From Phycisphaerae bacterium (GTDB taxonomy: Bacteria > Planctomycetota > Phycisphaerae > UBA1845): a stretch of 64,000 nt of DNA. Location of the stretch: assembly GCA_963666835.2 (NCBI GenBank), contig CAXXGO010000003.1, positions 480,001-544,000 on the forward strand. Direction: 5' to 3'. The notes beneath the pieces were generated by a model. That model ran no database searches and had not been told where the DNA came from. It worked only from the letters and a program-made list of their open reading frames with translations. This document shows, piece by piece, positions 39,705 through 64,000 of the stretch; position 1 is the first letter of the stretch; each line of letters opens with the position of its first letter. Position numbers and translations under genes: made by a program.

Positions 39705-42413
39705 CTACTCAACCCACACTCTGGCCAGGTCGGTATCAACGGGATCCTCCAGCCCGCGCAGGTGCTTGATGTAATCGATCAACTCCTCTTCCGACCGCTC
39801 CGCCATCTCCAGACGCAATCGCAGATCTTCGAGGTTGGGATACTCCTTCAGACCGTTCCGCCATGTCTCGACCGCCTTGGCCATGCTCTCTTCGTAGCCA
39901 CTTTCCCGGTTCTTTACGTAAGAATCCCCCAGGCCAACAAAGCCGAATCCGAAATACTCTCGCTGCTTCTCGGCGGGTAGTGATCTTTGTAGTTCGATCA
40001 GTTCCGTGAAGTCCTTGATCGCCAGTGGAGCGTGGTTCAGCTTTCGCGGCCAGTGCAGGTGGTTCATTCCGCGGATGAACTTCGCCGTCCAACAGCCGGG
40101 GTCGAGTTCGAGAATGATATCCAGCTCCGCCAGAGACCGGTTGGATAGCTTGCCCTGGCTTACGATGCCGAGCTTGGGGTACGGCATTTTGTCTACGTAA
40201 GCCAAGGCCTTGTTGAGCCTGGGCATGGTCTTTTTCGGATGCTGTTCAACCAGATCCTCAAAGAACCGAATCGAACGATCGAAGTAACGATGGCCGTACC
40301 GGCGGACGAGCATTCGGTATGTATTGGCATACAACATTGCGTCAGGGTCCAGTTGAATCGCCTTCTCCAGCTCGCCCAGAGCAGCACTCCGCCGACCACG
40401 TTTATCCAACAACATCGCAAACTCATAACGCCGCGCCGGATCACTCGGGTCCGTAAGGACGCTCTGTTTGAGGTCCAGGTACTCCTTCTTGAAGGCGGCT
40501 TGCTCTTCCCAACTCAGGTCCGGCTCTCCGGTATCGGCGGCCGCGGTAGATTCTTTCTCGCGTTCGCGCTCGAGCTGATAGGCTTCGATTTGGGCCTCTT
40601 TAAACAGCCGCCGCTCTTCCAGGAACGCCTTAGGCGTGTTTTCGGTGTATTTGACAAGCTGATTCGGCTTGACGTTCTCGAAGCGTTCTACGAAACCGGT
40701 CGGCCATCGAATCTCAAGATAGTCGATCTTCTCGCGCTGCCCCAAGCCGAAATGCAACCGGTACGGACACTGGCTGTGATCACCGTTGCCCCCGTCGAGC
40801 TCGCGAATCTGCGAAAGACCCTCGGAGACAACCTTCACTCGGGTGCCGATCGCGTCGCGATTGCAGTTGGTCCCTTGAAGCTCAACCTGCAACCAGTGGT
40901 TCTTGTTCCCAACATCGTTCCGGTAGAACACGCTGTCTTGACCCTGGTTGGATATGTAGACATCCAGGTCACCATCATTGTCGTAATCGGCAATCGCCAA
41001 GCCCCGCCCGTCATGCGTATCCGCCAGCCCCAAGCTCTCGGCCACCTCGGTGAAGACCTCGTTTCCCTCGTTACGCCAAACCCGCGATGGCTCATAGCCG
41101 GAGAATGTGGAATCGCCCATCATCGGCCAGTTCTGAGCTTCGATCGGGTCGAAGCCGGGTTTGGTCACCGATGTGGCCAGCTTCGTGAAATACTCGTCCT
41201 TGGGGTCCCCGGAGATGTAGCCGTTTGCTACGATGATGTCGAGATCACCGTCGTTATCGTAATCCCAGAACCGCCCGGCCCAGCACCAGCCGGCGTCATA
41301 CACGTTGGCTTCAAAGGAGATGTCGCTGAAAGTGCCATCCCCCATGTTTCGATAGAGCTGATTACCTTCTTTCACGTACTCCTTCGTCCAGATGTTCGTG
41401 ACGTAAAGATCGAGCCAGCCATCGTTGTTGTAGTCGCCGAATTCGACGTTCATTCCCTTGTGAGTATCCCACCCGATAGCCTCATCGGTCACGTTCGTGA
41501 AGGTCCCGTCGGCATTCACCCGGTAGAACCGGTCTTGTCCGAAGTCGTTGGCGTTAACGAGATCCTGATCACCGTCGTTGTCGTAGTCCGCGGCCCCGCA
41601 ATCGAGGGTCCAGCCCGTATCGTCAACACCCATCTCCTTCCCGACTTCCGTGAAGGTCCCGTCCCGGTTGTTACGGTAGAGTACGTTCGGGCCGGCGTCG
41701 CGCGCCGTCTCGAAGTCCTCGTGCATCTGCCGCGAGTCTTCGAGGTTCCACAAGTCGACGTACCTAAAATAGTTCCCGATGTAGAGATCCAGATAGCCGT
41801 CATCGTTGTAGTCGAACCAGATTCCCGCGTTGCCGTTGCCCTTATCACCGACTCCGGCCTCGTTGGTAACGTCAGTAAACGTGCCGTCACCGTTGGCGCG
41901 ATACAGTATGTTCCATCCCCATTTTACGACGTAGAGGTCGAGATGACCGTCGTTGTTGTAATCGCCCCACACCAAGTCCATCGACGTTCCGTGCGTTTCG
42001 TTCGCCCGAGCGATCCCGGCCTTCTCGGCAACATCCGTGAACGTCCCGTCACCGTTGTTTCGCAGGAGGCGGTTCGGTTTCCCCAGTTGCGAGTTCGTCG
42101 CGCATATGTCGACGTTCCCATCCCGATCGTAGTCAACCGCCGTCGCGGACGCCCCGACGGAAGCCATCCACGGCATGATGCAATCGAGCTTCTTATCCAA
42201 CACAGGCTTGTAATGGCGGTGCCGAACGCCGGCTCGATCCGTAATGTCGACGAAGGCGGGACCACCGTCCTTCGCACCGGAATCCGCTTGGGCGACGCCA
42301 CAGAGCCCCCCCAATGTGACGGCCGCAAGGCACGTCGCCAAAACAGCGTAAGTGTTGCGCAATCGATGTCCGCTCATGTTACGCCCTCTCTTCATCCACG
42401 CCCCGCGGTTCAC
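39705..42413 (-). CDS. CRTAC1/ASPIC-UnbV protein with a C-terminal TPR-like domain
   Basis: Signal peptide, FG-GAP repeats (DYNNDG.LDLY), NRDAIG.RV...LHFGLG...IRWP.G and a helical TPR-like tail. Confidence 0.92.
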   Translation of the reverse strand: MNRGAWMKRGRNMSGHRLRNTYAVLATCLAAVTLGGLCGVAQADSGAKDGGPAFVDITDRAGVRHRHYKPVLDKKLDCIMPWMASVGASATAVDYDRDGNVDICATNSQLGKPNRLLRNNGDGTFTDVAEKAGIARANETHGTSMDLVWGDYNNDGHLDLYVVKWGWNILYRANGDGTFTDVTNEAGVGDKGNGNAGIWFDYNDDGYLDLYIGNYFRYVDLWNLEDSRQMHEDFETARDAGPNVLYRNNRDGTFTEVGKEMGVDDTGWTLDCGAADYDNDGDQDLVNANDFGQDRFYRVNADGTFTNVTDEAIGWDTHKGMNVEFGDYNNDGWLDLYVTNIWTKEYVKEGNQLYRNMGDGTFSDISFEANVYDAGWCWAGRFWDYDNDGDLDIIVANGYISGDPKDEYFTKLATSVTKPGFDPIEAQNWPMMGDSTFSGYEPSRVWRNEGNEVFTEVAESLGLADTHDGRGLAIADYDNDGDLDVYISNQGQDSVFYRNDVGNKNHWLQVELQGTNCNRDAIGTRVKVVSEGLSQIRELDGGNGDHSQCPYRLHFGLGQREKIDYLEIRWPTGFVERFENVKPNQLVKYTENTPKAFLEERRLFKEAQIEAYQLEREREKESTAAADTGEPDLSWEEQAAFKKEYLDLKQSVLTDPSDPARRYEFAMLLDKRGRRSAALGELEKAIQLDPDAMLYANTYRMLVRRYGHRYFDRSIRFFEDLVEQHPKKTMPRLNKALAYVDKMPYPKLGIVSQGKLSNRSLAELDIILELDPGCWTAKFIRGMNHLHWPRKLNHAPLAIKDFTELIELQRSLPAEKQREYFGFGFVGLGDSYVKNRESGYEESMAKAVETWRNGLKEYPNLEDLRLRLEMAERSEEELIDYIKHLRGLEDPVDTDLARVWVE

Positions 42414-49615: not shown

Positions 49616-52600
49616 ATGTTAAGGTTCTGCGCCAAATATGTCGTTCTGATGTCACTCGTCGCCATTGGTACGCCCGTCGCGACCGGCACACCCGCCGTGG
49701 ACGACCAGTGGGATTTCGATGTTAATGGTTACGTCGATTTGACGGACTTTCGTTTCTTTGAGGAGTGTTTTGCGGTATCGGGGGTTCGGGACGAGATACC
49801 GCCGGTTTGTTTAGCGTTGTTTGACGCGGACCGCGACGGGGACGTCGACTTTGCCGACTTCGCCGGGTTTCAAAACGCCCGGGGGCATACGCCGATTCCC
49901 CTCAAGGACAGCCTCGGCAGCGCCATTACGATCAACTCCTCCGTGCCGTACAGCCCCCGCCAGACTTGCGGGGACTGCCACGACCATGACGCCGACGAAG
50001 TAGCCAACGGCGAGTGGTTCCAGCAAGGCAGAACCGACTTGGCCGGCAACGTCGATATGGCCGACGACTACTACGGAGACGGAAGATACTGGATCAAGAG
50101 CGCCGGCCGGTACGGCAAGTGGGGCCAGTCCTTCCAGTTCATGCTCGCCGCCAAGGACAACCACCGCGCTTCCGACATCGACCAGTCCGCCTACGCCTGG
50201 GTCCGCGACTGCAGCGGATGCCACTCCGGAGGCGGGCCGGGCGAGTTCGATCGCGACAACCAGCCCTTCTACGACGAAGCCTCCGGGCAGTTCGGATATG
50301 AGCTGCTCGGCTACAGCGCCGGCGATGTAACCCTCGACGGCGACTACTGCGTACTCGACAGAACCAGCGGCACGGTCAGCCCCGCACCCTGGGACGAAAC
50401 GGGACTCTCCGAGCCCGACTGCCTTTTGTGCCACCGGGCGGACCGCACCAACGGCGGATCCGACACGATCCAGGCCAACCGCAGCAACACCCTCGCGGCC
50501 GGCAACAGCCTCACCGACGGCGGCGGAGCTCCGGTCCCCGCGTTTGCCGCCGCCTCGACCGCCGGGCAGGGCTGGTATTCCAGTTTCAGCAAGCCCGCCT
50601 CCGCAATCGCCGCGACCGAAGGAATGACCACCGCGGACGTAGCGTTTCTCGAAGCCCACGATCAGAGCCGCGGGGGCATAGCCGCCGCGTCCACTCTGGA
50701 CATCAACTATAACACCGGCGTAACCGACGGCAGCCTGACCGTCGGCAACAACGACGAGGTCTTCCTCTCGCCGGACTCCGTATCCCTCAAAACCGCCGAT
50801 CGGGCCTGCGTTAGTTGTCACCCCTTGGCCGTGGTCGCCGGCGAAGTCTGGTTCGACGATCGTGACATCCACTACCGCAAGTTCAACAACCTCAACGACG
50901 AGGACCCTGACAACGACATCCCGGCGGAGCGGAGCACCGTCTGCTCCGAGTGCCATCCGACCGGCTTGGACCACAATGCGGCCAAGGGCAACTCCTTCCA
51001 GCTCCAGTATCGTAACGAGCTGGACTGGGAGAACTTCCGCTCCTGTCGCGATTGCCACCTGACCGACAGTCCGGTCCGTCATCCGGACGCCCCACACGTG
51101 CCCGGCACGCAGACGATCCACAACGTGCCTCCGTTCGATATTCTCTCGTGCCAGGCCTGCCACATACCTTACGCCCTGACCGCCGGTCTGCTCTTCCGCG
51201 ACATCACCGTTCCCGGCAGCGTCGGCTGGACCCACCAGTATTACTCCGAGAACCCGCTGGATCCGACGCTCGAAGACAGCGACAGCCGCTGGTATCCGCC
51301 CCTGCAGCTCAAAGAGGACAGCGACGGCGTGAAGCGGTGGTTCCCGGCCAGCGTATGGATCATGTTCTACTTCGGTGACTGGGACGATAACGGTACTCCG
51401 GGCGATCTGAGCGACGACGTAATCGCACCGATCTACACCTGGCGAACCGCCCAGGCGACGGCGAACGTCCCGGCCGGAGTACTCCAGGACGACGACGGCG
51501 ACGGACGCGGAGAGATCAATACTCCGGCGGAGATTCTGGCTTATCTTACCGCTCTCCGCGGCAACGACTCCAACGGCGTACCGTTCGCGGCGAACCCGGT
51601 TCTGGTTCGCGGACCGCGGGTCTTCTACGAAGACCCGGCCAATCCCGGCACGGTGCTCTCGTTCGAGCATGAAGGGACCGGCATCCCAATGACGTCCTAC
51701 CCCTATATCTGGGGCATGGACCACAACGTACTTCCTCAGGAAGAAGCTTGGGGCCACGCTGCCGATCCGTTCGCCGGATGTCTGGACTGCCACCCGGCCG
51801 ACGGCGAGCTCTCCCCGGTCTTCGATCGCCTCATCCTCGTCGATCCGTTGGATGAGCACGGTCAGACGATCTACAAAACCGTCAAGGAACTCACCGACCT
51901 CAATCCTCACCCGCAAATGGTCCTCAAGGACTCTTTGGGGAACCCGATCACGGTCGACTCGACGGTGCCTTACAGCCCGCGGCAGACCTGCGGCGGCTGC
52001 CATGACCACGAGGCCGACGAGGTAGCCAACGGCGAGTGGTTCCAGCAAGGTCGCACAGATGTAGACGGCAACGTCGACATGGCCGACGACTACTACGGCG
52101 ACGGGCGGTATTGGACTAAGAGTTCCGGCCGGTACGGTCAGTGGGGTCAGACGTTCCAGTTCATGCTGGCCGCCAAGGACAACACCCGTCCGTCCGACAT
52201 TGACCAGTCGACCTTCGCGTGGATCCGCGATTGCAGCGGCTGTCACGCCGGCGGCGGTCCGGGCGAGTTCGATCGTGACGATCAGCTCCTCTACAACGAA
52301 ATCACCGGCGAGTTCGGTTACGAGCTTTTGGGCAAAAGCGCCGGCGACGTCGCCCTCGACGGGGACTATTGCGTAGTGGACGGCTCTACGGGGCAAGCCA
52401 GTCTCGCCCCCTGGGACGAGACCGGTCTCTCCGAGCCCGACTGCCTCTTGTGCCACCGCGAGGACCGCGACAACGGCGGCTCCGATACGATCCAGGCCAA
52501 ACGCAGTAATACCCTCGCGGCCGCCAACAACCTGGTCAACGGTGCGGGCGAACCGGTTCCGGGCTTCGCCGCGGCACCTACCGCCGGGCAGGGCTGGTAC

Positions 52601-53956
52601 TCCGAATACGCGTTGGCCTCCCCGGCCATAGCTTCCGCCGACGGGCTCAGTGCTGCGGATGAAGCGTTCGTCAATCCGGTTCCGGAAGAATCGGGCGGGA
52701 TCGCGGCGGCGAGCACGCTGACGATCGATTACTCGGTCGGCGTAGCGGACGGCAGTTTGATCGTCGGGGAGAACGACGTGCTCTCGCTGGCGTTGTCGTC
52801 GCTGGCCTACCCGCCGAAGGACCAGGCTTGCACCAGTTGCCACCCGATGGCGGTGGTCGCGGGGATGGTATGGTTCGACGATCGGGACGTACACTATGCC
52901 AAGTTCAACAACCTCAACGACGAGGATCCTGAGAACGACATTCCCGCCAACGAGAGCCGAGTCTGTACGGAGTGTCACGAGGGCGAACTGGACCACAACG
53001 TGGGCAAGGGTAACGCCTTCAATCTCCAGTTCCGTGACGAGTTGGACTATGCGAACGATTTCCGGTCATGCCGCGAGTGCCACCTTTCGGACAGCCCGGT
53101 GCGTCACGAAGACGCTCCGGAAGTCCCCGGTGATTTGAACATTCACGCGGTGCCGCCGTACGAGGTCCTCGCCTGCCAGGCGTGCCACGTGCCTTACGCT
53201 TTGACCGCCGGTCTGCTCTTCAGAGACAGTACCGTTCCCGGCAGCGTCGGCTGGACCCACCAGTATTACTCGGAAGATCCGCTGAATCCGGCGGCGGTGG
53301 ACGGCGACAGTCGCTGGTATCCGCCGTTTATGCTCAAGAAGGACAGCGATGGAGTCGAGCGTTGGTTCCCGGCCAGTGTCTGGATCATGCACTACTTCGG
53401 TGATTGGGACACTAACGGTACCCCGGGCGACTACACCGACGACACCGTCACTCCGCTGTATACCTGGCGAGTGGCTCAGGCCATTGCCAACGCCGCCACC
53501 GATCCGTGGCTGGCGGTAACCGACGCGGACGGTGACGGGCGCAACGAGATCAACACGCCCGAGGAGATTCTGACGTTCATCCAGGCCCTCAAGGGTAACG
53601 ACGACAACGGCGTGCAGGTCGCGGCCAACCCGGTGCTGGTCCGCGGTAAGCGGTTCTTCTATCAGGACCCGGCCGACTCGCACAATGTGCTGTCCCTCAA
53701 TTACGTCGGCAAGGGCATCGCCATGGAGGAATGGTACCCGTACATCTGGGGCATGGACCACAACGTGCTGGCCAAGGAAGAGTCGTGGGGCTACGGATCG
53801 CTTCCGGAGCGGAGTTGCAACGACTGCCACCGGGCTCTGACCCACGATTCCCCGGTCTTCGCTCGTAAGATCCTGGTCGACCCGTGCGACGAGAACGGTC
53901 AAGCCGTCTACGAGACCATGACCGACTTCACCGGCCTGGACCCGGACAACCCCTAG
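49616..53956 (+). CDS. Secreted 16-heme c-type cytochrome: N-terminal dockerin-like domain + two tandem octaheme modules
   Basis: Signal peptide, DFDVNGYVDLTDF...DADRDGDVDFADF, and 16 CxxCH motifs counted (8 per module). Confidence 0.95.
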   Translation: MLRFCAKYVVLMSLVAIGTPVATGTPAVDDQWDFDVNGYVDLTDFRFFEECFAVSGVRDEIPPVCLALFDADRDGDVDFADFAGFQNARGHTPIPLKDSLGSAITINSSVPYSPRQTCGDCHDHDADEVANGEWFQQGRTDLAGNVDMADDYYGDGRYWIKSAGRYGKWGQSFQFMLAAKDNHRASDIDQSAYAWVRDCSGCHSGGGPGEFDRDNQPFYDEASGQFGYELLGYSAGDVTLDGDYCVLDRTSGTVSPAPWDETGLSEPDCLLCHRADRTNGGSDTIQANRSNTLAAGNSLTDGGGAPVPAFAAASTAGQGWYSSFSKPASAIAATEGMTTADVAFLEAHDQSRGGIAAASTLDINYNTGVTDGSLTVGNNDEVFLSPDSVSLKTADRACVSCHPLAVVAGEVWFDDRDIHYRKFNNLNDEDPDNDIPAERSTVCSECHPTGLDHNAAKGNSFQLQYRNELDWENFRSCRDCHLTDSPVRHPDAPHVPGTQTIHNVPPFDILSCQACHIPYALTAGLLFRDITVPGSVGWTHQYYSENPLDPTLEDSDSRWYPPLQLKEDSDGVKRWFPASVWIMFYFGDWDDNGTPGDLSDDVIAPIYTWRTAQATANVPAGVLQDDDGDGRGEINTPAEILAYLTALRGNDSNGVPFAANPVLVRGPRVFYEDPANPGTVLSFEHEGTGIPMTSYPYIWGMDHNVLPQEEAWGHAADPFAGCLDCHPADGELSPVFDRLILVDPLDEHGQTIYKTVKELTDLNPHPQMVLKDSLGNPITVDSTVPYSPRQTCGGCHDHEADEVANGEWFQQGRTDVDGNVDMADDYYGDGRYWTKSSGRYGQWGQTFQFMLAAKDNTRPSDIDQSTFAWIRDCSGCHAGGGPGEFDRDDQLLYNEITGEFGYELLGKSAGDVALDGDYCVVDGSTGQASLAPWDETGLSEPDCLLCHREDRDNGGSDTIQAKRSNTLAAANNLVNGAGEPVPGFAAAPTAGQGWYSEYALASPAIASADGLSAADEAFVNPVPEESGGIAAASTLTIDYSVGVADGSLIVGENDVLSLALSSLAYPPKDQACTSCHPMAVVAGMVWFDDRDVHYAKFNNLNDEDPENDIPANESRVCTECHEGELDHNVGKGNAFNLQFRDELDYANDFRSCRECHLSDSPVRHEDAPEVPGDLNIHAVPPYEVLACQACHVPYALTAGLLFRDSTVPGSVGWTHQYYSEDPLNPAAVDGDSRWYPPFMLKKDSDGVERWFPASVWIMHYFGDWDTNGTPGDYTDDTVTPLYTWRVAQAIANAATDPWLAVTDADGDGRNEINTPEEILTFIQALKGNDDNGVQVAANPVLVRGKRFFYQDPADSHNVLSLNYVGKGIAMEEWYPYIWGMDHNVLAKEESWGYGSLPERSCNDCHRALTHDSPVFARKILVDPCDENGQAVYETMTDFTGLDPDNP
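49901..53945 (+). repeat. Intragenic tandem duplication, about 2022-nt period
   Basis: CTCAAGGAC (LKDSLG) starts at 49901 and 51923. Long identical peptides recur (PYSPRQTCG, ADEVANGEWFQQGRTD, PWDETGLSEPDCLLCHR, PYIWGMDHNVL). Confidence 0.95.
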
Positions 53957-54054: not shown

Positions 54055-54453
54055 CGGTTGCCATGGTCCACGCTGGCGTGGCCATGCCGCCCAGGCGGCA
54101 GCCCGGTAGGGCACGGTCGAGGCACGAGACCTGCCACAACGATGCACGTCGCGCAAGGACCACGGCAGGTCTCGTTCCTCGACCATGCCCTACACCTGCC
54201 GCGTGGCTCGCGGAACCAGCCCGCCAGGGCGGCAGGTCTGCCTAGCCCGCGGCTTACGCCGCGGGGCTGGAGGACCTACCGCCCCAAGGGACTTGATGCC
54301 ACCCTGCGATCTCCCAACTACGCCGACATCGACAAGCAAGCCGGTCCGCGGAGCGGCCCCTACCTGCTACGCGTCAAGCCCCACGGGTCAACAAGTTGAC
54401 CCGTGACACCCAGGTGTCATCCCGGTAGGGCACGGTCGAGGTACGAGACCTGC
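54055..54453. repeat. Dense REP/REPIN cluster between convergent genes
   Basis: Inverted REP pair at 54106-54135 and 54164-54193, a third copy at 54425-54453, plus palindromes CATGGTCCACGCTGGCGTGGCCATG, CCGCGGCTTACGCCGCGG and CACGGGTCAACAAGTTGACCCGTG (54382-54405). Confidence 0.85.
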
Positions 54454-55771
54454 GTCGCGCAGGAACAATCCCGCCGTCTCGAATCGTCCCCAACGGCGCA
54501 ATCCGCCGGTTCTGTCCGTTCGAATCCCATTCAATCGTCCCGCCGACACCGGACCACGGACTCAATCCTCGAACGCTATCGCGAATCGCTTCACGATCGA
54601 GACCCGCGCGGCGGATCGCCGCGATGGTCAGAGTCATTGCGTCGTATGACAGCACGGCCGTGTAGTCCGGGGCAGCACCGAACCGGTCTCGAAACCGCTG
54701 TACGAAAGACGCCGCCTCGGCACCGGCGCCCGCTCCGTCCCACAACATCGGAAACACCAGGCCCCCGGCGGACTCCCCGGCCAGGCTGATGAAAAGCCGA
54801 TGCCCCATGCGCGGTCCGCCATAGACCGGCATCGAGAATCCGGCTTGGCGAAGAGTGATCAGGAACCGGGCCGCGTCTTCCGGGCCGGCGATTACTACGA
54901 GACCCTCCCAATCACGCCGCTTCGGGTAGCACAGGCTTCCAGCCTGCCCCTCTGCGCCCCCTTGACACGGGAGCAGGCTCTCAAACGACCTTGCCGAAGG
55001 CGGCACCGGTTCGGCATCCGGCGTCTGCTGCCCGATCGTCCCGCCATCGAACCCCGCGGCCGGGTCCGCTGACCCGTGAGCTTCTGCACCTCCAATACGA
55101 AGAGCCTCAAGCTGCGTACGAAAACCCGCAACCCCCGGCCTGAATTTCACATGACGAACCGGAAAGACCTTGCGATCCTGCAAAGCGGCAAGCAGCTCCG
55201 CCGTGAAGATCCGCGAGTCGTGATCGGTACAGGAAACTACGGCGACGCGGTCCGTATCATGCACAATGGCCTCGGCCAGAGCCTGTGCCAGAACATCGTC
55301 GCTGGGGGCACATGAAAACACCCACGGCACGTTGGCCAGGTTGGCGGTAGGATCAGTCGCCACCGGGCTGACGAAGGTAAGACGTGCCTTGGCCACGACC
55401 TGCTCGACCAGATGTGCCGAGGGCCCATCGGGCGCCCCGACTATGGCCCAGACCCCCTCGTCGTATGCCATCCGGGTGACCCCCACTATCCCCGAGCCCC
55501 ACGGATTCTGCGACCAGGAAGGCACAAGCCGAAACGGACGCCCTGCGAACCCCCCGCCCGCGTTAGCTTCCTCAACAGCCAGCTCGGCCGCGCCCCACAT
55601 CCCCCCTGCCAACGGGTGGTCCGCATCCGCCGGACCGTACCACCCGATCCGCACTTCGGAGTCTGCGGCCGGCCCGGCTCGCCCGGACGAGTCATCGCCG
55701 GCGCCCCCCGCCAGGAGTATTAAGACCGGCAAAGTCGCCCGCCCGTACCGGGATAGGCTCACAAAACGCAC
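54374..55771 (-). CDS. Periplasmic binding protein, Leu/Ile/Val (type I) family, with an internal insertion
   Basis: V.IGW.GP, GA.LAVEEAN..GG..G.PF.L, V.AIVG and F..RF..RFG..PD..A...YD. About 55-aa low-complexity insert. Confidence 0.85.
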   Translation of the reverse strand: MRFVSLSRYGRATLPVLILLAGGAGDDSSGRAGPAADSEVRIGWYGPADADHPLAGGMWGAAELAVEEANAGGGFAGRPFRLVPSWSQNPWGSGIVGVTRMAYDEGVWAIVGAPDGPSAHLVEQVVAKARLTFVSPVATDPTANLANVPWVFSCAPSDDVLAQALAEAIVHDTDRVAVVSCTDHDSRIFTAELLAALQDRKVFPVRHVKFRPGVAGFRTQLEALRIGGAEAHGSADPAAGFDGGTIGQQTPDAEPVPPSARSFESLLPCQGGAEGQAGSLCYPKRRDWEGLVVIAGPEDAARFLITLRQAGFSMPVYGGPRMGHRLFISLAGESAGGLVFPMLWDGAGAGAEAASFVQRFRDRFGAAPDYTAVLSYDAMTLTIAAIRRAGLDREAIRDSVRGLSPWSGVGGTIEWDSNGQNRRIAPLGTIRDGGIVPARRRSRTSTVPYRDDTWVSRVNLLTRGA

Positions 55772-55787
55772 GGGCCGGCCCCTTCTT

Positions 55788-57293
55788 CTAACGGTCCGCC
55801 GCGACTGTCTTACGATTCACCCGGTCGCGGGGGTGAATAACACCTTGAGGAACCAGCCAATCCTCGCGGGAGTAGTATTGATAGGCTCCGTTTTCTACTC
55901 TGGCGAAGAAAACCTCCCCCGCGTCATCGAGGCAAGCGCTGAGCGGAATCTCCCCCGTGACTCCGACAAACGGTGCCGGCCGGTGGGCGATGACATCCCT
56001 GATCTTGGCCCGGTTCAGCCCAGCCGTCTGTACCGCCCAGATCAGCATATTCATGCCATCGTAGCCGTGGGCGGCGTAAGTGTCGGCGTCGGCGCCGAAG
56101 CGTTCCCGGAACTTGCGGTGGAACTCCGCAAGTAGCGGATCGTCACGCTGCGGATCCCACGGGTAGCCCCCGATCACGCCTTCCGCATTCGCCCCGGCCA
56201 GTCTGATGAACTCCTGGGATACGCACCGATCACACACGAAGAACGGCTGGTTCATCCCGCGCACCCGCATCTCGTTGAGAATATATGCCCCATCCTCGGC
56301 ATCGCCCCAATGGACGATCGCTTCGAGATTACTGTTATCAAGGCGATCCAACTGCAGGGTGTAATCGCCGCCCCCCACCTGATAGGCCATCTCGAGCACG
56401 ATGGGTTGCCCGAGTCGGCGGGCGCCGTCGCGAATCTCGCGCACGCCGAACCGCCCATACCGATTGCTCGCCCGGATGATCCCAACCCGGCGAAGCCCCA
56501 GCTTGCGGTAAATATAGTCCACCAGCATGTATCCCATTCGCCGGTCATCGCCGATGCATCGGATGACCCACGGAATGTTCGTTTCGATAAACGTCGGATC
56601 GGTATCCCCGCTGTTGACCATGACAACTTCAGCCTTCAATGCCACTCGAATGGCAATATGACTGTTGGCTCCGTCGATCGTGCCGAGAATGGCCCAGACC
56701 CCATCCCGGTAGGCCATCTTGACAATCTCGTTACCCGACGCCCCCCACAACCCGTTGTCGTTCGAGATCACCAGCTCGAACGGAATGTCACGTTTGCGGT
56801 ATCCGCCGGACTCGTTGGCCTGCTCAATCGCCAGCCGCGCCCCGCGGAGCATGGCAATCCCGAGAATCTCTTCATGGCTCTTGCCTCCCGTCGCCACGGA
56901 AACCGTCGACATGATCGGCCCGATGAAGCCGATTTTTACGGTATCCACGTCATCCGGCTCGGGGATCGCCCGGCCCGGCCCCGTATACTCCATCTGCTCG
57001 AGAAAATGCTCCTTGAACGGGGTGACATGTCGGAAGGGTTCCACATCGACGGACGATCCGCCGTAGTTGTTGTCCTTCTGAAGTTCGAGCTTCGGCACTT
57101 CGTAAGGTCCGACGTCGATGACCTCCAGAAGTTTCTCTATGCCGGCGTCCGGCGATTCACTTATATCACCGGTTGTTTTCGCCACCCCGGCGTTATCGCC
57201 TTCAGACGCAGAATCCGCGAAAGCTGAAGCCGCACTCATCAAGACCGACCCGATTCCGATGACGGCCCACACTGCCATTCTATTGGTGTTCAT
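55788..57293 (-). CDS. Periplasmic binding protein, Leu/Ile/Val (type I) family
   Basis: Signal peptide, VKIGFIGP, GARLAIEQAN..GG, VWAILG and F.ERFG..AD.YAAHGYDG. ATGA overlap with the upstream gene. Confidence 0.9.
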   Translation of the reverse strand: MNTNRMAVWAVIGIGSVLMSAASAFADSASEGDNAGVAKTTGDISESPDAGIEKLLEVIDVGPYEVPKLELQKDNNYGGSSVDVEPFRHVTPFKEHFLEQMEYTGPGRAIPEPDDVDTVKIGFIGPIMSTVSVATGGKSHEEILGIAMLRGARLAIEQANESGGYRKRDIPFELVISNDNGLWGASGNEIVKMAYRDGVWAILGTIDGANSHIAIRVALKAEVVMVNSGDTDPTFIETNIPWVIRCIGDDRRMGYMLVDYIYRKLGLRRVGIIRASNRYGRFGVREIRDGARRLGQPIVLEMAYQVGGGDYTLQLDRLDNSNLEAIVHWGDAEDGAYILNEMRVRGMNQPFFVCDRCVSQEFIRLAGANAEGVIGGYPWDPQRDDPLLAEFHRKFRERFGADADTYAAHGYDGMNMLIWAVQTAGLNRAKIRDVIAHRPAPFVGVTGEIPLSACLDDAGEVFFARVENGAYQYYSREDWLVPQGVIHPRDRVNRKTVAADR

Positions 57294-58540
57294 GATCCAT
57301 GACTCCCCTCGCCCGATGAGGGCTTCTCTCGGTCGATGTGATTAGTGGCTCGCAGCCGCGGGTAGTAGCCCCGCCCTATCGCGTGCCCCAGTCCTTTGGA
57401 AGTGCCGAGCCAGGCGTCGTCGCCATCGAACTCAGCCCAGAGTACATAGTTGTGCGGCAGACTCATGCCGGTATCAACCTCGGCCAGCACTTCGGTACCG
57501 CGCTGAATGACCGCCTTCCCCCGGTGGTTGATCTGATCGCATGTATAGGTCACCCACGTGTCACTTTCGAAGTCAGCCACGACCCCGAGCCCTTTATCGG
57601 TGCAGAACCACGCCTCGTAGGCGGATCGCCCCTTGACGGCGTTGTTGAAGTCGCTGGGAAGCCCGCACTCGTGGGCGAAGTACCCGCGCCAGTGCCGCCC
57701 ATCGTACCGGCAGGCCCCGAAGTACGTGGTCACCCAGAGGATCTTCTCAACGTAGCTCACTCCCGTGGTGATTACGTGAACAACCCCGTCGTCGCGGTAC
57801 AGGTCGATCTCCATCTCACCATCCGGATCGAGATAATCCTTCCAGGTTCCCCGCTCAATGTCATATTCCAGCACCCCACTGCCCCAGATCCCCAGATAGA
57901 CCAACCCGTCCGCGTAGCAGCATCCGTAGTTCCAGATCTCTTCCATCGGAGCGTTTTTCTCGGTGAAGATCGACCATTCCCCGGTGACCGTGTTGTACCG
58001 GCTGGCCCCGGCCGTAGTAGCCGCCCAGATGTTGTCGTGCTCCACCGCAACGCCGTAGATCACATCATTAACCACCCCGCTGTTGAGCTGATGCCAGTGG
58101 TCGAAACGCCCCCCGCTAAAGCGGGCCAGCCCGCCCCCGAACATGCCGATCCAGACCTCTCCGGTACCGGGATGCACGTCAATTGCCGAGACGACCCGCC
58201 AGGGCAGCCCGTCCTCCTCGGTCCAGCTCTGTATCCTGCGGGTCTTCTTGTTGAGGCAGGCCAGCCCCCCTTCCGTACCGATCCACACCCGGTCGCCATC
58301 GACCTTAACAGCAAAAACGTGGTCGTTGGGCAGGCCGTCCTTCGTTGAGAACCGCTCCCACTCCGTGTACACGAACGGCAGGCCGAGCGCGTCCGCGGTT
58401 CCTCCCACAGCGGCGGCAGCGGCGGCCACCGGCCTCGCTTCCCCAGGCTCATCGGAATCTCCGCGCGCAGACGACACCGCAAGAAGTGCCACACAAACGC
58501 CCAATGCTCTGCTTCGGGTATGCTTAAACGAACTAATCAT
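57290..58540 (-). CDS. Secreted beta-propeller protein (two-component-regulator propeller repeats, no kinase domain)
   Basis: F...DGLP.D.V.A...DG..VWIGT.GGL repeats and a signal peptide. Confidence 0.88.
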   Translation of the reverse strand: MISSFKHTRSRALGVCVALLAVSSARGDSDEPGEARPVAAAAAAVGGTADALGLPFVYTEWERFSTKDGLPNDHVFAVKVDGDRVWIGTEGGLACLNKKTRRIQSWTEEDGLPWRVVSAIDVHPGTGEVWIGMFGGGLARFSGGRFDHWHQLNSGVVNDVIYGVAVEHDNIWAATTAGASRYNTVTGEWSIFTEKNAPMEEIWNYGCCYADGLVYLGIWGSGVLEYDIERGTWKDYLDPDGEMEIDLYRDDGVVHVITTGVSYVEKILWVTTYFGACRYDGRHWRGYFAHECGLPSDFNNAVKGRSAYEAWFCTDKGLGVVADFESDTWVTYTCDQINHRGKAVIQRGTEVLAEVDTGMSLPHNYVLWAEFDGDDAWLGTSKGLGHAIGRGYYPRLRATNHIDREKPSSGEGSHGS

Positions 58541-58608
58541 CTTACTGCCCTCCGGTTACTGCCGAGGCCGTTACCAAAAAGCGTGCTACGTTTCTTCTTC
58601 CCGAACCG

Positions 58609-61470
58609 CTAGAGTGTCTTAAGATACTCCATAAGGTCGTTCAACTGGTCCTTGGTCATATCGTTGGTTACCCCGTGTTCGTCGTACGGGTTGAACCTCG
58701 TCCAGATCTCCTCGAGAGTCTCGGCGGTTCCGTTGTGCAAATACGGCGCCGAGTCGTAAATGTTGTTAAGGTGAGGCACATCGAATTCGGCCTCGCGATC
58801 CATCATCATCTTCGTACCGACATCCCGCACCGTTCGATCCGTGAACAACGGCGCAAAGTGGCAAGTGGCACAGCGGTTCTCTTCGGGAATCACTTTCCCG
58901 TCGTTGCCGACGGTTCGCTCAAAGACGGCTTTGCCGCGCCTTTGCGCAGGAGTCAACTTCCCCCCCACCGGCCGATATCGGTTTGGCGGACGCGGGATCG
59001 TGCAGATGTAGTTGTCCAGCGCCGCCAGCTCCTCCGGGGTGAACGGGTCGATCCTGGTAAAGAACACGGCCAGTCGCGGACCGCATTGCCGTTGCAGACT
59101 CGGATTCGTCCCCTCCCATTTGAAAGGAGCGGTATCCAGGATTCCGCGCAGCGTACGGTTGTCCACGGGGCTGCTCCCGATTCCGTCCGGTTCAATGTCG
59201 TACGTCAGACCGTCAATATGCCCGTCCGGATGGCACGAATGGCAGGAGAACTGGCGGTGGAACGTCACGTCGGCACTATGAAAAAGCAGCTCACCCCAGC
59301 GCACCTTGGTAATCGTCTCCGGACCACCCAAGTCGATCCGCCCCGCCGCCTCCAAACGGGGTACGTCAATCACCGTGATGGAATCGTCCAACGCGTTGGC
59401 GACAAAGGCCAGCCGTCCGTCCTTCGAGAAGAGCACCCCTCGCGGGCTGTTCCTGGTTTCAATGTGCTTGAGAATGAACTCCGTCGGTTTTCCAAGATGG
59501 TTCGGGAGAACATGCTCCAACTCATACTGACTTGCCCCGCGGAGCATCGTAATCAGCTTATCGACATCGATAACCGCGACCCGATCGGACCCGCTGCTGG
59601 TTACGAAAGCCAGCTTACCGTCCGGGCTGATTGCCACACCGGCCGCATCCGGAAAACACAGGTGCGGCTCGTCAAGCAGAACCTGATTGACCCTCCCGTC
59701 GCGCCAGATCACGCCCATCCCATTGGTGATCGTCCAGCCCTGCAGTAGCCTAGTCATCGGAACGAGGTTCTTGGTTCGGTTCAGAGTAATCAGTGCAAAC
59801 TCCCCGGACGGGTGCCAGGCGATACCCTGCATCAAGTTAGCTCCCGGCACCGTTATCCGCTGCTCCACCGCCTCCCGCCGGGTGTTGATAATCGTGACTT
59901 CCGACAGCGACGGCTCACGGAACTCCACAAACCGCGAAAGGGTGTTGGTGCAAGCGATTCGCTCTCCGTCGGGGCTCAGTGCTGCGGCCCACGGTCCCCG
60001 ACTACCGGTCAGGCGCTTCTTTTCTGTCCCGGTATCCCCATCAATCACCGAGATGCTGTCCGCAGAGGTGTTCAATACGTAGACGACCCGACCGGCCTGG
60101 TCCATCAGAACCCCGTGCGGTTCGTCCCCAACTTCAACGGTTTTCAGAACCGTGCGGCTTTGCGTATCCACCACCACCATCGTGTCATCCAAGCGGTTCG
60201 TCACAAATGCGCGCGTCCCGTCCGGACTGAAGGCCACCCCGGTAGGCTGCCCTCCCGTTGTAATCTCCGCCACCGCTCGCCGTGACGCCACATCGACTAC
60301 CACCACGGAGTCGGACGCCTCGCATGCTACGTACAATTCAGTTCCATCTGGAGAAAGCGCGAGGTTTAGCGGCGTCTTGTAGCGTTGGGCTTGGGTCCCT
60401 TCCTTCAGTGTTTCCGCGCGCAACGGATGGCTGATCTTCTTCATCTTGGCGGTATAATCGAAAGACGATCCGTCATCTGAACCGTGGCACGGTGCGCACG
60501 TCTGCGCAGTAACGGGCAGCAGTCCGGCCTGCCGCGCGGCGGGCGGGTCGCGCATGACGGCTTCCACCGCGTAGTCACTGCCGGGTCCGTGACAGGCCTC
60601 ACACTGCACTCCGTCGAGCAGATCGAAACCGGGCAGCGCCGGGGCCGCCCCTTTGCGCACACCGGTTGCGTGGCATACCAGGCACTCCTGCAACTCCTGC
60701 GGAACGCCCCTTGCCCCGGCCTTCTCCGCCGCCTGATAGCCCGCCGGCGTGCCTAGCACCGCATAAGCTGCGGCATGCCCGCTGTCCCGCCACTTGCTGA
60801 ACTGGTAACCCATCATAGGCCCCTTGTGGCAGCCCGCGCATTTCATAACCCCGACGTATCCCCTTGTGCCTGAAGCCGGCTTATTCTCCGGGCGGGCTGT
60901 TGCCGCCGCCCCATCGTTGGGCGTCGGGTGGGCGATCTTCTTCATTCCCATCGCCACGTCCAACTGCGGCGCACTGAGCACCGCCACATGCGAGCCTTTC
61001 ACATTGTGGCACATCATGCAATCGCGCGGCCGCGGCATTCGCAGGCCCGCCATCATGGCCTTCTCCCGGTCCATCATTACTTCGTTGTTCGCATATTCGC
61101 TGCCAGGACCGTGACATGTCTCGCATTGCACCCCGTCTTCAAGAAGGAACTCGTCTTCCTTCTCCCACGCCTCCACCCTCGAGCCCGTAGCGTGGCACCC
61201 CAAGCACATGGCGGATTCCTGCGGTTCCTCGGGGATCCCGCTGAGCTCGGCGATCTTCTTGGACTGCGGGCTCCACAGGCAGGCGTAAGCTCCCGAATGG
61301 GCCGACGCCCGCCATAGACCGACCTGATGACCGGCCGCTTTTCCCGCGTGGCATTTGGCGCAGGCTCTGACACCTACGTATATGGGATGCCGGTCGTGGA
61401 CGCCGGGATCCGAAGCCGACGCCAAACTCGCCACGACCCCCACACAGACAACCAAAACGCCCAATCGCAT
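58609..61470 (-). CDS. 10-heme fusion: 2x cytochrome c554-like tetraheme + YVTN beta-propeller + diheme CCP/MauG-like domain (HzsB/HzsC-like)
   Basis: Two YVG...CxxCH...W..S.H..A...CxxCH..G....GVQCE.CHGPGS.Y...CxxCH modules, P.G.A.SPDG...YV.N..SD...VID repeats, then G..LF...SCHSCHPDG, TAPF.W.G, RG.AVF...CATCH and P.L......APYLH.G. Confidence 0.92.
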   Translation of the reverse strand: MRLGVLVVCVGVVASLASASDPGVHDRHPIYVGVRACAKCHAGKAAGHQVGLWRASAHSGAYACLWSPQSKKIAELSGIPEEPQESAMCLGCHATGSRVEAWEKEDEFLLEDGVQCETCHGPGSEYANNEVMMDREKAMMAGLRMPRPRDCMMCHNVKGSHVAVLSAPQLDVAMGMKKIAHPTPNDGAAATARPENKPASGTRGYVGVMKCAGCHKGPMMGYQFSKWRDSGHAAAYAVLGTPAGYQAAEKAGARGVPQELQECLVCHATGVRKGAAPALPGFDLLDGVQCEACHGPGSDYAVEAVMRDPPAARQAGLLPVTAQTCAPCHGSDDGSSFDYTAKMKKISHPLRAETLKEGTQAQRYKTPLNLALSPDGTELYVACEASDSVVVVDVASRRAVAEITTGGQPTGVAFSPDGTRAFVTNRLDDTMVVVDTQSRTVLKTVEVGDEPHGVLMDQAGRVVYVLNTSADSISVIDGDTGTEKKRLTGSRGPWAAALSPDGERIACTNTLSRFVEFREPSLSEVTIINTRREAVEQRITVPGANLMQGIAWHPSGEFALITLNRTKNLVPMTRLLQGWTITNGMGVIWRDGRVNQVLLDEPHLCFPDAAGVAISPDGKLAFVTSSGSDRVAVIDVDKLITMLRGASQYELEHVLPNHLGKPTEFILKHIETRNSPRGVLFSKDGRLAFVANALDDSITVIDVPRLEAAGRIDLGGPETITKVRWGELLFHSADVTFHRQFSCHSCHPDGHIDGLTYDIEPDGIGSSPVDNRTLRGILDTAPFKWEGTNPSLQRQCGPRLAVFFTRIDPFTPEELAALDNYICTIPRPPNRYRPVGGKLTPAQRRGKAVFERTVGNDGKVIPEENRCATCHFAPLFTDRTVRDVGTKMMMDREAEFDVPHLNNIYDSAPYLHNGTAETLEEIWTRFNPYDEHGVTNDMTKDQLNDLMEYLKTL

Positions 61471-61499
61471 CGTACTGCACCCTCCCGGCCGGCCGGTAG

Positions 61500-63125
61500 T
61501 CAGCCCTTCTCCTGGATTACGCTGAGAATCTGCCTGCTCGCCACGTCCTTCAGTACGGTCGTTTCGCCGTTAGGCCAGCGGATCTCGACCCGGTCGACCT
61601 TGTTTGCATCCTTGAGCCCGAAGTGGGCCCGCGGATCGCTCCGCGAAAGATACCCGGTTACCCCCGCCACTTCGCACACCCGACGACTCTCGCCCACAAT
61701 CGCGGTGACCCGTGCGCCAATGGCGTCAGCCCCGCTCCCAGCGAGCTTCGGCGCGACGGTCAGCCAGTGGTTCCGATTGCCGCCGTCATTACGCAGGAGC
61801 CTGGCCGGTCCGTTGAGGTTCATCACAAGAATGTCAATGTCCCCGTCATTATCGTAATCCGCCACGGCCGCACCTCGGCCCACGTACTTCTCACGGAAGT
61901 AACTCCCCGACCGATCCGCAACATCGACGAACACCCCGTCGCCACGGTTTCTAACCAGGACGTCCTCCTCACTGTACTCGTGGTGGGCGTTGCCGTTGGC
62001 TACGAAAATATCTAATAAGCCATCGTTGTCGTAGTCCAACAGCCCGCCGCCCCAGCCGGTGTACTGCCCGCAGATGACCGCCAGATTGCTCGGAGCAGTC
62101 ACGTCAACGAACCAATCCCCCTTCCGCAACAGCAGACAACCGTACCCCATGTCAGGAATGTAAACGTCGAGCAGGCCGTCGCGATTCACGTCCCCGACGA
62201 CCGGGCCCATTGACGATGCCCCCTGTCCGCCTTCCCCAAACGCCAGCCCCCAATCCAACGTCTCGTTTCGAAAGGTCCCCTTACCGGTGTTGACAAAGTA
62301 CGCATTTGGCGTGGCATCGTTGGTGACGTAGAGGTCGATCAGACCATCGTCGTTCAGATCAGTCGCAACCGCGCTCATCGCCCGTCCGTCCGGATAGAAG
62401 ACTCCGACCTCTTTCGAAACTTCCGAGAAACTGCCGTCACCGTTGTTGCGGTAGAGTCGGTCGGGATGCGCTCGGTAGCTCAGCGGCCCCGGATAGCCGG
62501 CGGCCGGGTAGAAATCGCGGAACTGCCCTGCGTCGTACTCAAGGTAGTTGGCCACGTAGACATCCAGATCCCCGTCACCGTCATAATCCAGCCACGGGGC
62601 GGAGAGACTCCACAGCGGATCAGCCAAGCCCGATTCCGCAGAGGCGTCGGTGAACGTACCGTCGCCGTTATTGCGGTAGAGCACGTTGGGACCGTAGTTC
62701 AACACGTACAGATCAACATCGCCGTCGTTGTCATAATCCGCCGCCGATACGCCAATCCCATACCCCTGATCGCCCACCTTGGCCTTGTCTGTAACGTCGA
62801 CGAAAGTGCCGTCACCGTTGTTACGGTAGAGCCGATTCGACAGTTGGCCGCGCAAGTCGCGTCCCAGGTTATCGTTGACCTCGCGCCGCCAGCAGGCGTT
62901 CACCAGGTAGATGTCGAGAAGACCATCCCCGTCGAAATCGAAGAACGCTCCGCCCGGACCGGTCCCTTCGACGATATTGCTGAGGTTGCGGTCTCCGAAG
63001 CTGTGTTTGAACTCAAGGCCCGCCTGCTCGGTCACATCGGTGAAGACCGGCAGCGGAGCATCCTCTCCGGCCGCCGCACATGCCGCCAACATCGTGACAC
63101 ACCATGCCTTGCCGATGGTTCTCAT
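61500..63125 (-). CDS. CRTAC1/ASPIC-UnbV family protein
   Basis: FTDVT..AGL.F.H, IVE..G.G.A.FD.DGDG, FG-GAP repeats and DAIGARV...HFGL...IRWP.G. ATG 63125 overlaps the upstream stop (ATGA). Confidence 0.93.
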   Translation of the reverse strand: MRTIGKAWCVTMLAACAAAGEDAPLPVFTDVTEQAGLEFKHSFGDRNLSNIVEGTGPGGAFFDFDGDGLLDIYLVNACWRREVNDNLGRDLRGQLSNRLYRNNGDGTFVDVTDKAKVGDQGYGIGVSAADYDNDGDVDLYVLNYGPNVLYRNNGDGTFTDASAESGLADPLWSLSAPWLDYDGDGDLDVYVANYLEYDAGQFRDFYPAAGYPGPLSYRAHPDRLYRNNGDGSFSEVSKEVGVFYPDGRAMSAVATDLNDDGLIDLYVTNDATPNAYFVNTGKGTFRNETLDWGLAFGEGGQGASSMGPVVGDVNRDGLLDVYIPDMGYGCLLLRKGDWFVDVTAPSNLAVICGQYTGWGGGLLDYDNDGLLDIFVANGNAHHEYSEEDVLVRNRGDGVFVDVADRSGSYFREKYVGRGAAVADYDNDGDIDILVMNLNGPARLLRNDGGNRNHWLTVAPKLAGSGADAIGARVTAIVGESRRVCEVAGVTGYLSRSDPRAHFGLKDANKVDRVEIRWPNGETTVLKDVASRQILSVIQEKG

Positions 63126-64000
63126 TCCGTAACTCCACGCGCTAGCCCGGCATCCGTGGCGGGCCCCACCTCTTGTTCTGGAATGCCATCCCAATGAGCA
63201 CCCAGATCAATCCACTCGATAAGTGTCGCCTTTTCGGCATTAGATAGCTGCTTGGCCTCCGCCGGCGGGCACTGCGAAACCGCTTGCCCGCTCCCCATCG
63301 CCGCATCCTCAGAACTCACGGTGTTCCGCCCGAAGAGCCGCCAGACCAGCGGACTGGTTCTGGCCTGTCCCGGGTGGATGTACTTGCCCCTGACCGGATC
63401 GCTCCCCGCTACCGAATCCTCTACACCTTCAAGAAGAGCAGCGTACACTTGATCGGCTCCCCCCGTCGGCTTTAGCTCCAGATCAAACTCACGGGCTGAA
63501 TCACCGTGGCACCCCATGCATTTCCGCTCGATAATCGGCATGACCTCGCGTCGAAAGTCAACGGTCCTTCGTTTCAGAGCCGGCAGGGTCAACCGCGTGG
63601 CCGGGCGTCGCAGAGCCGCCACGAGCCGGTTCTCCGGAGTCAGTTCCGGATCTTCGTGGCAGCCGATACAGCCCCGCGGCTCGCGATGCTTCACCCAGAT
63701 CCACCCGGAGCTTGCCAAAGCCAACCCGTCAGCATCCAACGTCTGCAACTGAACCGGCAGGTCAGCCGGTATTTCTATCTGAAAGGAGCCGTCCTCCTCA
63801 ATCGGCGCCACCCCCAACAGCCGCTTGCGCACCACCGGAGGCCACATCTGTAGCGAGTCGGAGATTCGTTCACCGGCCCGCGCGGGAACGCCCTCAATCA
63901 CGCGCAATGTTCGGGTCGTACCGGCCAGCATGCGTGGGGCAGCCGAGGGATCGGTAAGGTTTGCGTTCAGGCAATACAACTGGCCCGTCGGGTACTTCTC
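63122..64000 (-). CDS. Hydrazine synthase alpha-subunit-like protein, 3' part (middle domain + two heme c motifs)
   Basis: Frame is open to the window edge (EKYPTGQLYCLN...). LRVIEG...RLLG.AP.E.DGSF...IPAD.P.QLQTLD.DG.AL....WIWV...E.RGCIGCHE, then a second motif CMGCH. Confidence 0.8.
   Translation of the reverse strand, partial: EKYPTGQLYCLNANLTDPSAAPRMLAGTTRTLRVIEGVPARAGERISDSLQMWPPVVRKRLLGVAPIEEDGSFQIEIPADLPVQLQTLDADGLALASSGWIWVKHREPRGCIGCHEDPELTPENRLVAALRRPATRLTLPALKRRTVDFRREVMPIIERKCMGCHGDSAREFDLELKPTGGADQVYAALLEGVEDSVAGSDPVRGKYIHPGQARTSPLVWRLFGRNTVSSEDAAMGSGQAVSQCPPAEAKQLSNAEKATLIEWIDLGAHWDGIPEQEVGPATDAGLARGVTE

Follow-up and report, generated by a model that had tools for sequence, protein, structure and literature searches.

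The window analysed here, a 64,000-nucleotide stretch (C3:480001-544000; contig CAXXGO010000003.1 of assembly GCA_963666835.2) of a 6.0 Mb Phycisphaerae genome that comprises 7 contigs and is rated 92% complete, carries at one end six genes. They form a genuine and conserved operon, which encodes a secreted 12-haem relative of the anammox enzyme hydrazine synthase (HZS). The operon is not itself a hydrazine synthase, and its residues and genomic setting indicate that hydrazine is almost certainly not made. Our preferred reading, to which we assign a probability of about 0.5, is that the operon encodes a secreted 12-haem redox complex, sister to anammox HZS, which would act on a self-made compound of the hydroxybenzoate type. 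The six genes and their products are listed in Table 1.

In phmmer searches of the PDB, the sole sequence match of the alpha protein is chain A of anammox HZS (5C2V; E 8e-48), and the fusion protein encoded downstream of it matches chains B (E 1e-41) and C (E 7e-21) of the same entry. The HZS_alpha domain (PF18582) is detected in alpha at 75.9 bits (cut-off 26.6). Modelled with AlphaFold (mean pLDDT 87), alpha has a TM-score of 0.74 to 5c2v_A, the next matches being generic propellers at ~0.34, and the model of the beta propeller aligns with 5c2v_B at Z 47.3 and an rmsd of 2.3 over 339 residues (next entry, 38.6). The gamma domain of the beta-gamma model is of low confidence, with pLDDT <50 over most of the domain. 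By these comparisons the operon proteins are identifiable as true homologues of all three HZS subunits, much as an initial annotation of the window had proposed in describing analogues of alpha, beta and gamma encoded together; comparison with the HZS structure bears this out for the alpha and beta folds. Identity to the anammox subunits is 24-32%, and none of the four NCBIfam HZS models is passed: scores against cut-offs are 202.5/800 for alpha (NF052339), 214.6/1250 for the beta-gamma fusion (NF052342), 165.7/560 for beta and 90.4/625 for gamma. With anammox HzsABC (5C2V) the operon shares the three modules and their folds, the haem motifs alphaI, alphaII, gammaI and gammaII, the third thioether Cys, the bis-His gammaII and the beta-loop insertion; it differs in its reversed gene order, eight extra haems, four extra genes and replaced catalytic-site residues.

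The six open reading frames (ORFs) lie co-oriented on the minus strand at 54374..64000, where they had been placed initially along with the 10-haem fusion and two ATGA overlaps, one joining the alpha stop to the CRTAC1 start (63122-63125) and the other the propeller stop to the start of binding protein 1 (57290-57293); the remaining intergenic gaps are 29, 68 and 16 bp. Retrieval of the upstream gene gave a complete HzsA homologue of 660 aa, which ends just past the window edge. Between this gene and its next upstream neighbour lie some 300 bp of non-coding DNA, and no sigma-70 promoter-like site was found upstream of the operon. A crude hydropathy scan detected a hydrophobic N-terminal stretch in 6/6 proteins, in keeping with the export-type N-termini first annotated, and no membrane-length segment after the N terminus in any of them. 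Pfam recognizes FG-GAP and UnbV_ASPIC in the CRTAC1 protein, two Cytochrome_C554 domains, a propeller and CCP_MauG in the fusion, Reg_prop in the stand-alone propeller and Peripla_BP_6 in both binding proteins. The haem motifs of the putative complex number 12.

Active-site residues were aligned with seven anammox reference loci, with the numbering of one (L010) reproducing the published alpha and gamma positions; residue counts refer to 117 of the 120 listed alpha homologues (those of at least 600 aa), 53 gamma homologues and, for the beta loop, 54 homologues. In HZS, haem alphaI is ligated by Tyr591, and His587 and Cys303 bind zinc; the roles of Tyr591, His587 and Asp168 are treated in the preprint bioRxiv 10.1101/2023.01.22.525020. 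Tyr591, present in 7/7 references, is replaced by Glu or Asp beside a deletion in the window protein and in 117/117 homologues, and Cys303 corresponds to a gap in the same proteins. In gamma, His144 (7/7 references) becomes Trp785 and Asp168 (7/7) becomes Leu800 in the window and in 53/53 homologues, the latter column being uncertain by one owing to a one-residue insertion. The beta-loop Glu, found in 5/6 references, is Arg574 in the window (Arg in 53/54 homologues, Lys in 1/54), while Met572 and Trp579 of this loop are invariant. Cys165 is kept as C796 and His332 as H932 in 53/53, so that the third thioether Cys and the bis-His gammaII are retained. Invariant in all 53 gamma domains are W785, Q795, C796, R799, L800, T805, R806 and H932, and the domain is evidently under strong constraint; the same 53 homologues have no conserved acid between C796 and P809 of the gamma loop.

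The residue preceding the C-terminal PP motif of alpha, in the region of His772, is Met in 45, Cys in 37, His in 19, Ile in 10 and another residue in 6 of the 117 homologues, i.e., Met, Cys or His in 101/117, so haem alphaII probably does have a distal ligand. The Cys612 at this place in the window protein suggests a His/Cys-ligated alphaII. Near the alphaI site, 114/117 alpha homologues have a Cys, which would lie on the distal side of alphaI; the window protein has Ser466 there. A TsdA/SoxA-like sulfur role for this Cys was considered and set aside, the window having Ser at that position. Diheme enzymes of the bCcP/MauG type have a distal Glu and a second haem with His/Met or His/Tyr ligation. 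Neither feature is found in the operon gamma domain, which has no conserved loop acid and in which the distal position aligns with HZS His332. To the dihaem peroxidase/MauG/MbnH superfamily (1iqc, 1zzh, 9qdt) it is nevertheless related by the inter-haem Trp and distal Gln, which align with W785 and Q795; it differs from that superfamily in its bis-His second haem, its third thioether Cys, the lack of a conserved distal acid, and its fusion to a propeller and c554 domains.

It is because Tyr591, Cys303, His144, Asp168 and the beta-loop Glu are replaced, and because HAO/HDH and acetyl-CoA synthase were not found, that we read the operon as something other than a hydrazine synthase. In the 92%-complete genome there are 0 matches to the HAO/HDH family (PF13447), compared with 12-14 in each of three anammox controls, and 0 to acetyl-CoA synthase (PF03598), compared with 1 in each of two controls; haem-copper oxidase/NOR and NrfA likewise gave nothing over cut-off in this genome. 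One HZS_alpha domain is present, and the genome is not among the 14 of 301 in the phylum that pass the HzsA NCBIfam cut-off, which are members of the same phylum and not of the same class. The nearest named alpha homologues, at 59-64%, come from metagenome-assembled genomes (MAGs) of Phycisphaerales/Phycisphaerae, and in a quick tree with seven anammox HzsA the window alpha groups with Phycisphaerales MAGs, inside a non-anammox group to which loci of Thermoguttaceae and Bryobacteraceae also belong, and is separated by a long branch from the anammox sequences. The host, which had been called apparently non-anammox from the window alone, is not an anammox organism by its HzsA score and by what was found in its 92%-complete genome. 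Elsewhere in the same order, weak matches to the alpha protein number 11-41 in three genomes (G026, G031, G036), many of them in open frames of 1000-1500 aa; a plasmid search returned partial matches only, annotated as SUMF1-family fusions, and PF18582 passes its cut-off in Bacteroides thetaiotaomicron. HZS_alpha matches alone are therefore not diagnostic of anammox, and over-call it.

The arrangement alpha-CRTAC1-(2x c554)beta-gamma has been described as clade I by Hagglund et al. 2025 (Genome Biol Evol, PMC12758564), with examples in Syntrophobacter fumaroxidans, Thermogutta terrifontis, Aquisphaera giovannonii and Paludibaculum fermentans, and that paper rejects an anammox function for such clusters. 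The window operon is recognizable as a further instance of this published architecture. It has alpha upstream of a fused beta-gamma with CRTAC1 between them and two binding-protein genes downstream. Its two c554 domains contribute eight additional haem motifs at the N terminus, both haem motifs of alpha and the third gamma Cys are present, Trp stands in place of His144, and Tyr591, Cys303, His772 and the beta Glu are lost; the gene order, extra haem motifs, alphaII motif, loss of His772, third gamma Cys and His144 to Trp change are those by which we match it to the clade I cluster. The cluster had initially been taken as uncharacterised, in which it was anticipated by that description. The stand-alone propeller goes unmentioned in the main text of PMC12758564, although Fig. 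4c and Fig. S7 may show it, and the terms Asp168, RidA, chorism-, DAHP and aromatic are all absent from that main text, whose figures may show neighbouring genes. In two other papers, hzs-like genes from beyond Brocadiales are described and interpreted as possible anammox: Suarez 2023 (PMC10732223) in Phycisphaerae UBA1845, where hzsA lies immediately upstream of hzsBC, and Jiang 2025 (PMC11828985), with HzsA-like genes from cold seeps. As there described, these share with the operon a non-Brocadiales hzsA-like gene, a fused hzsBC-like gene and export signals, and the Suarez arrangement fits a 6-haem operon type (L110, L113, L114, L118) rather than the window operon. The anammox reading of these genes is not supported by the residue and genome comparisons made here. 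A direct liquid chromatography-mass spectrometry (LC-MS) assay for hydrazine is described in the preprint 10.64898/2026.02.25.707902.

Conservation of gene order was assessed with an alignment of the window alpha and 92 of its 120 listed matches (93 sequences), which found 537 related loci; the best 80 of these were kept, and each gene was counted only in loci with room for it. The 80 loci span Planctomycetota, Acidobacteriota, Verrucomicrobiota and one Anaerolineales MAG. Downstream of alpha, CRTAC1 is found in 68/68, the fusion in 58/58, the propeller in 49/52, binding protein 1 in 42/43 and binding protein 2 in 34/40 loci, such that the order holds in nearly all of them; one propeller miss (L034) is a propeller-binding protein fusion, and one miss for binding protein 2 (L085) has a second binding protein that is labelled type 1. 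An NTGA overlap joins alpha and CRTAC1 in 51/67 loci. The operon is patchy in its distribution, with a close binding protein 1 (at least 65%) in 7/251 genomes of the class, the window genome included; class genomes and named loci may in part be the same records, and the two sets of counts are not independent. The family has two other HZS-like operon types. One has a 2-haem beta-gamma and includes genes for Rid and DAHP synthase (L109, L115/L124), and the other is the 6-haem type, which is without CRTAC1. Several genomes of the family have two or three gamma-like genes. Of 33 loci extending past binding protein 2, 7 encode a carbon-nitrogen hydrolase just downstream, and a 60% homologue of it is encoded in the window genome at C5:275961-276947. 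It was discarded as a core part, being present in only 2/7 close carriers and in 7/243 genomes without binding protein 1 among the 251 class genomes.

The propeller and binding proteins appear to belong together. In four loci (L034, L110, L113, L114) the propeller is fused to a binding protein, and in L115 binding protein 1 is fused to a single lobe of binding protein 2, with the same Pfam pattern in L109. No ABC permease or ATPase is encoded in the operon or among its recurring neighbours, and the three PF02653 permeases of the genome lie elsewhere, in gene sets that, judged by eye, read like sugar ABC transporters; the cognate permease and ATPase of an ABC branched-chain/HAAT importer are accordingly missing. 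Because of the fusions and the lack of a permease with the operon, the sequences point to a module in which the propeller and flytrap-type binding proteins hold a ligand for the enzyme, rather than to an importer. The two proteins are the only Peripla_BP_6 matches over cut-off in the genome, and they differ in conservation, with 33% of positions conserved at a level of at least 95% in binding protein 1 vs 7% in binding protein 2. A predicted complex of the two scored 0.01, which has no bearing either way.

The strongest functional link is to a pair of genes on another contig, a Rid-fold, Hyg5-type chorismatase-like gene and one for an extra DAHP synthase with its ferredoxin-like domain still in place, which together with a second CRTAC1 gene (its product 45% identical to the operon's CRTAC1) form a satellite trio. 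The same CRTAC1-Rid-DAHP trio occurs in G439 and G514; it is preceded in G514 (L116) by an MMPL transporter, a possible export partner, and in G439 (L119) by a membrane polyferredoxin, a possible electron-transfer partner. Using the C6 Rid copy as query, co-occurrence was scored in 71 genomes of the same family, 35 with and 36 without a gamma-like domain. A Rid orthologue is present in 33/35 gamma-positive and 0/36 gamma-negative genomes, the Rid gene and the gamma-like domain switching together inside four genera (g12, g453, g454, g456), and the extra DAHP synthase (at least 66% identity) is present in 18/35 and 0/36, respectively. The 10 clade I carriers in the family have the Rid gene in 10/10 and the DAHP paralogue in 9/10. 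Across the 251 class genomes, a one- or two-domain Rid form is found in 27/33 gamma-positive and 20/218 gamma-negative genomes.

This link is also seen in gene neighbourhoods. In 19/80 loci alpha has a Rid-fold gene just upstream (14/52 when 2 kb of upstream sequence and the same strand are required), and 8 of the 19 are 51-62% identical to the C6 copy. In the 2-haem type the order is alpha-CRTAC1-betagamma-propeller-Rid-binding protein-DAHP synthase (L109, L124), and a two-domain Rid form, whose only PDB matches are FkbO and Hyg5, adjoins betagamma in L120-L123. The catalytic Glu (Glu334) and a Gly/Gly/Cys signature are described for Hyg5 in PMC7170507; by pattern, 18/20 Rid sequences have this Glu together with a Cys motif of the Hyg5 type (E141, C134 and G50 in the C6 copy), and the Arg of RidA is replaced in the Rid-fold sequences. 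The C6 protein thus shares these motifs with the Hyg5/FkbO chorismatases (5AG3, 5A3K, 4BPS), from which it differs in being a single 154-aa domain, as opposed to a chain of ~340 aa, and in scoring far below the family cut-off. The link between the haem operon and a chorismatase was not found in print: in a literature search from which subscription papers were mostly missing, none of the papers listed (15 of 107) contained hydrazine synthase or CRTAC1.

Several observations weigh against an aromatic-acid function. The direct PDB matches of the one-domain Rid are RidA/YabJ, not FkbO/Hyg5, it scores 36.7 bits on TIGR04444 against a cut-off of 325, and the chorismatase-like and DAHP synthase genes lie on a different contig, outside the operon of the window. 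At the thresholds used, neither Rid form is found in G367, G464 and G524, close carriers of clade I from outside the family, the match in G381 is only 33%, two gamma-positive genomes of the family (G024, G605) are without a Rid orthologue, and half of the gamma-positive family genomes are without the extra DAHP synthase. The genomes of a family are kin and not independent, with the result that the Fisher p-values overstate the association, and the same co-inheritance would be seen were the aromatic no more than a cofactor or signal for an enzyme with another substrate. Assignments in the gamma pocket rest on sequence alignment, because of the low-confidence model of that domain.

In favor of a hydroxybenzoate-type substrate for the complex we count the constraint on the gamma domain, the fusions, the Rid/DAHP co-occurrence and gene linkage, the Hyg5-type motifs and the sole Peripla_BP_6 pair. 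From the observed genes, domains, residue states, conserved order, fusions and co-occurrence we infer the activities, the ligand, that the proteins assemble as a single complex, and which way electrons flow, as follows. In the cytoplasm, the extra DAHP synthase would raise flux to chorismate, which the Rid-fold Hyg5-type chorismatase would cleave to a hydroxybenzoate, most likely the 3-hydroxy form. On the outer side of the inner membrane, the propeller would combine with both binding proteins in a capture module that belongs to no ABC importer, with the acid, or a compound derived from it, held by binding protein 1 and with binding protein 2 as structural partner. Haem gammaI, which would be five-coordinate and linked through three thioethers, would then carry out a multi-electron redox step on the aromatic acid; Trp785 would connect it to the bis-His gammaII, the eight c554 haems would back it, and haem alphaI, ordinarily His-ligated, would be a second site. 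The likely product would be a redox-active aromatic serving as cofactor or shuttle. A bolder version, which we consider unlikely, makes the complex a living sister of the HZS ancestor that builds a novel aromatic metabolite or cofactor by radical or N-N/N-O chemistry in the periplasm, the DAHP synthase and mini-chorismatase supplying hydroxybenzoate and the transporter-less flytrap/propeller module delivering it to two haem sites; if this were true, anammox would have arisen by the repurposing of a periplasmic biosynthetic enzyme.

Among other explanations, a somewhat unlikely one is a periplasmic reductase or detoxifier that acts at gammaI, is fed by the c554 haems and has as substrate a small inorganic oxidant, be it NO, hydroxylamine, nitrite, peroxide or a sulfur oxyanion, the aromatic, if made, being only a cofactor, haem ligand or inducer. 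The retention of C796, of the bis-His gammaII and of the peroxidase-type Trp and distal Gln is consistent with such an enzyme, as are the eight extra haems, which fit multi-electron reduction, the Cys next to alphaI in 114/117 alpha homologues, and the proposal that HZS gammaI itself reduces NO (bioRxiv 10.1101/2023.01.22.525020); yet no conserved acid is available from C796 to P809 to supply protons, the window alpha carries Ser where its homologues conserve Cys, HAO, haem-copper oxidase/NOR and NrfA are not found over cut-off in the genome, so that a chain for nitrogen respiration is not evident, and the binding proteins and extra DAHP synthase are left unexplained. The initial annotation had suggested N-N or N-O chemistry on another substrate as a possibility. 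Nothing in the present analysis supports this: the HZS residues tied to such chemistry are replaced, and the strongest functional link points to a chorismate-derived aromatic acid. A form of it on an organic substrate would have a hydroxybenzoate-derived amide or amine N-oxidised or N-aminated across two haem sites, a reaction from which hydrazine synthesis would have arisen. The two-site architecture and beta-loop insertion are kept, and the carbon-nitrogen hydrolase of 7/33 loci, with its homologue in the window genome, could belong to such a pathway, but the hydrolase does not track the operon, the Tyr/Zn site at alphaI tied to N-N formation is absent, and no amidotransferase occurs among the recurring neighbour clusters, leaving this decidedly unlikely.

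That the assembly is non-catalytic, either a multihaem conduit or a redox or ligand sensor in which the flytrap pair detects an aromatic acid, is suggested by the make-up of its subunits, 4/6 of which are propellers or flytrap domains, by the lack of a permease, and by a MarR regulator preceding one related operon (L109). We regard it as highly doubtful, since the operon has no membrane or signalling domain and the invariant residues cluster at haem gammaI, as in an active site. Least credible by far is a true hydrazine synthase in a novel anammox organism, an idea raised by Suarez 2023 for Phycisphaerae and by Jiang 2025 more widely: the homology and fold match to HZS and the retained third haem Cys and gamma His332 are set against NCBIfam scores far below all four cut-offs, replacement of Tyr591, Cys303, Asp168, His144 and the beta-loop Glu, a genome with neither PF13447 nor acetyl-CoA synthase where the controls have them, and a long branch from anammox HzsA in the quick tree.

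Table 1. Genes of the HZS-like operon and of the satellite trio, with domains and haem-site residues
Feature	Position	Strand	Description
HzsA homologue (alpha), 3' part	63122..64000	-	Full gene to window-equivalent 65104 (C3:545104), 660 aa
Alpha domains	63122..64000 (gene)	-	Propeller; HZS_alpha middle domain; C-terminal cytochrome domain
Alpha haem motifs			alphaI C479/C482/H483 in HZS_alpha middle domain; C529/C532/H533 in cytochrome domain; candidate distal Cys612
CRTAC1-family FG-GAP/ASPIC-UnbV propeller	61500..63125	-	541 aa
c554-beta-gamma fusion	58609..61470	-	953 aa, 10 CxxCH
Fusion parts			Two cytochrome c554 domains (8 CxxCH); HzsB-like propeller; HzsC-like dihaem domain
Fusion gamma residues			C743/C746/H747 with third Cys796; C867/C870/H871 with distal His932; Trp785, Gln795, Arg799, Leu800
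Stand-alone Reg_prop-type beta-propeller	57290..58540	-	416 aa
Binding protein 1, periplasmic	55788..57293	-	LivJ/Peripla_BP_6 fold, 501 aa, several invariant Arg
Binding protein 2, periplasmic	54374..55771	-	465 aa
Satellite trio	C6:1465063-1469025 (L105:10063-14025)		Second CRTAC1 gene, Rid protein, extra DAHP synthase
Rid-fold, Hyg5-type chorismatase-like gene	C6:1467151-1467615		154 aa, one domain, between second CRTAC1 and DAHP synthase

Other genes of the window and genome may be mentioned. Converging on the operon at 49616-53956 (+) is a gene for an exported 16-haem cytochrome of 1446 aa with two similar halves, which has a 99.8% identical copy at C1:1836321-1841276 and a half-size 8-haem paralogue (54%) at C1:127883-130195. 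In L110 a homologue lies ~3 kb downstream of another type of HZS-like operon; the 80 clade I loci gave none, and the cytochrome is not counted in the operon. Two further large CRTAC1-like genes are encoded in the window at 25715-29218 and 39705-42413 (-; 1167 and 902 aa), and similar ones, with TPR repeats, lie upstream of the operon in L028 and L055. The genome has 17 ORFs with at least three haem motifs, and a cluster at C3:705655-712232 encodes 4-, 11- and 5-haem cytochromes of the doubled-CXXCH type, a possible electron partner. A region at C5:8000-23000 with sugar ABC transporter and two-component genes looks by eye unlike the rest of the genome and may represent transfer or binning contamination.

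As the operon architecture is already published, the value of the present analysis is in making the question of its function testable rather than in the discovery of the operon. Through the chorismatase-like link, the question can first be approached at little cost, by assaying one protein on chorismate, and a class of ligands is named for the binding protein. Operons of HZS homologues also cause false calls of anammox in metagenomes. As some of the nearest relatives of hydrazine synthase, they bear on the question of how that enzyme originated.

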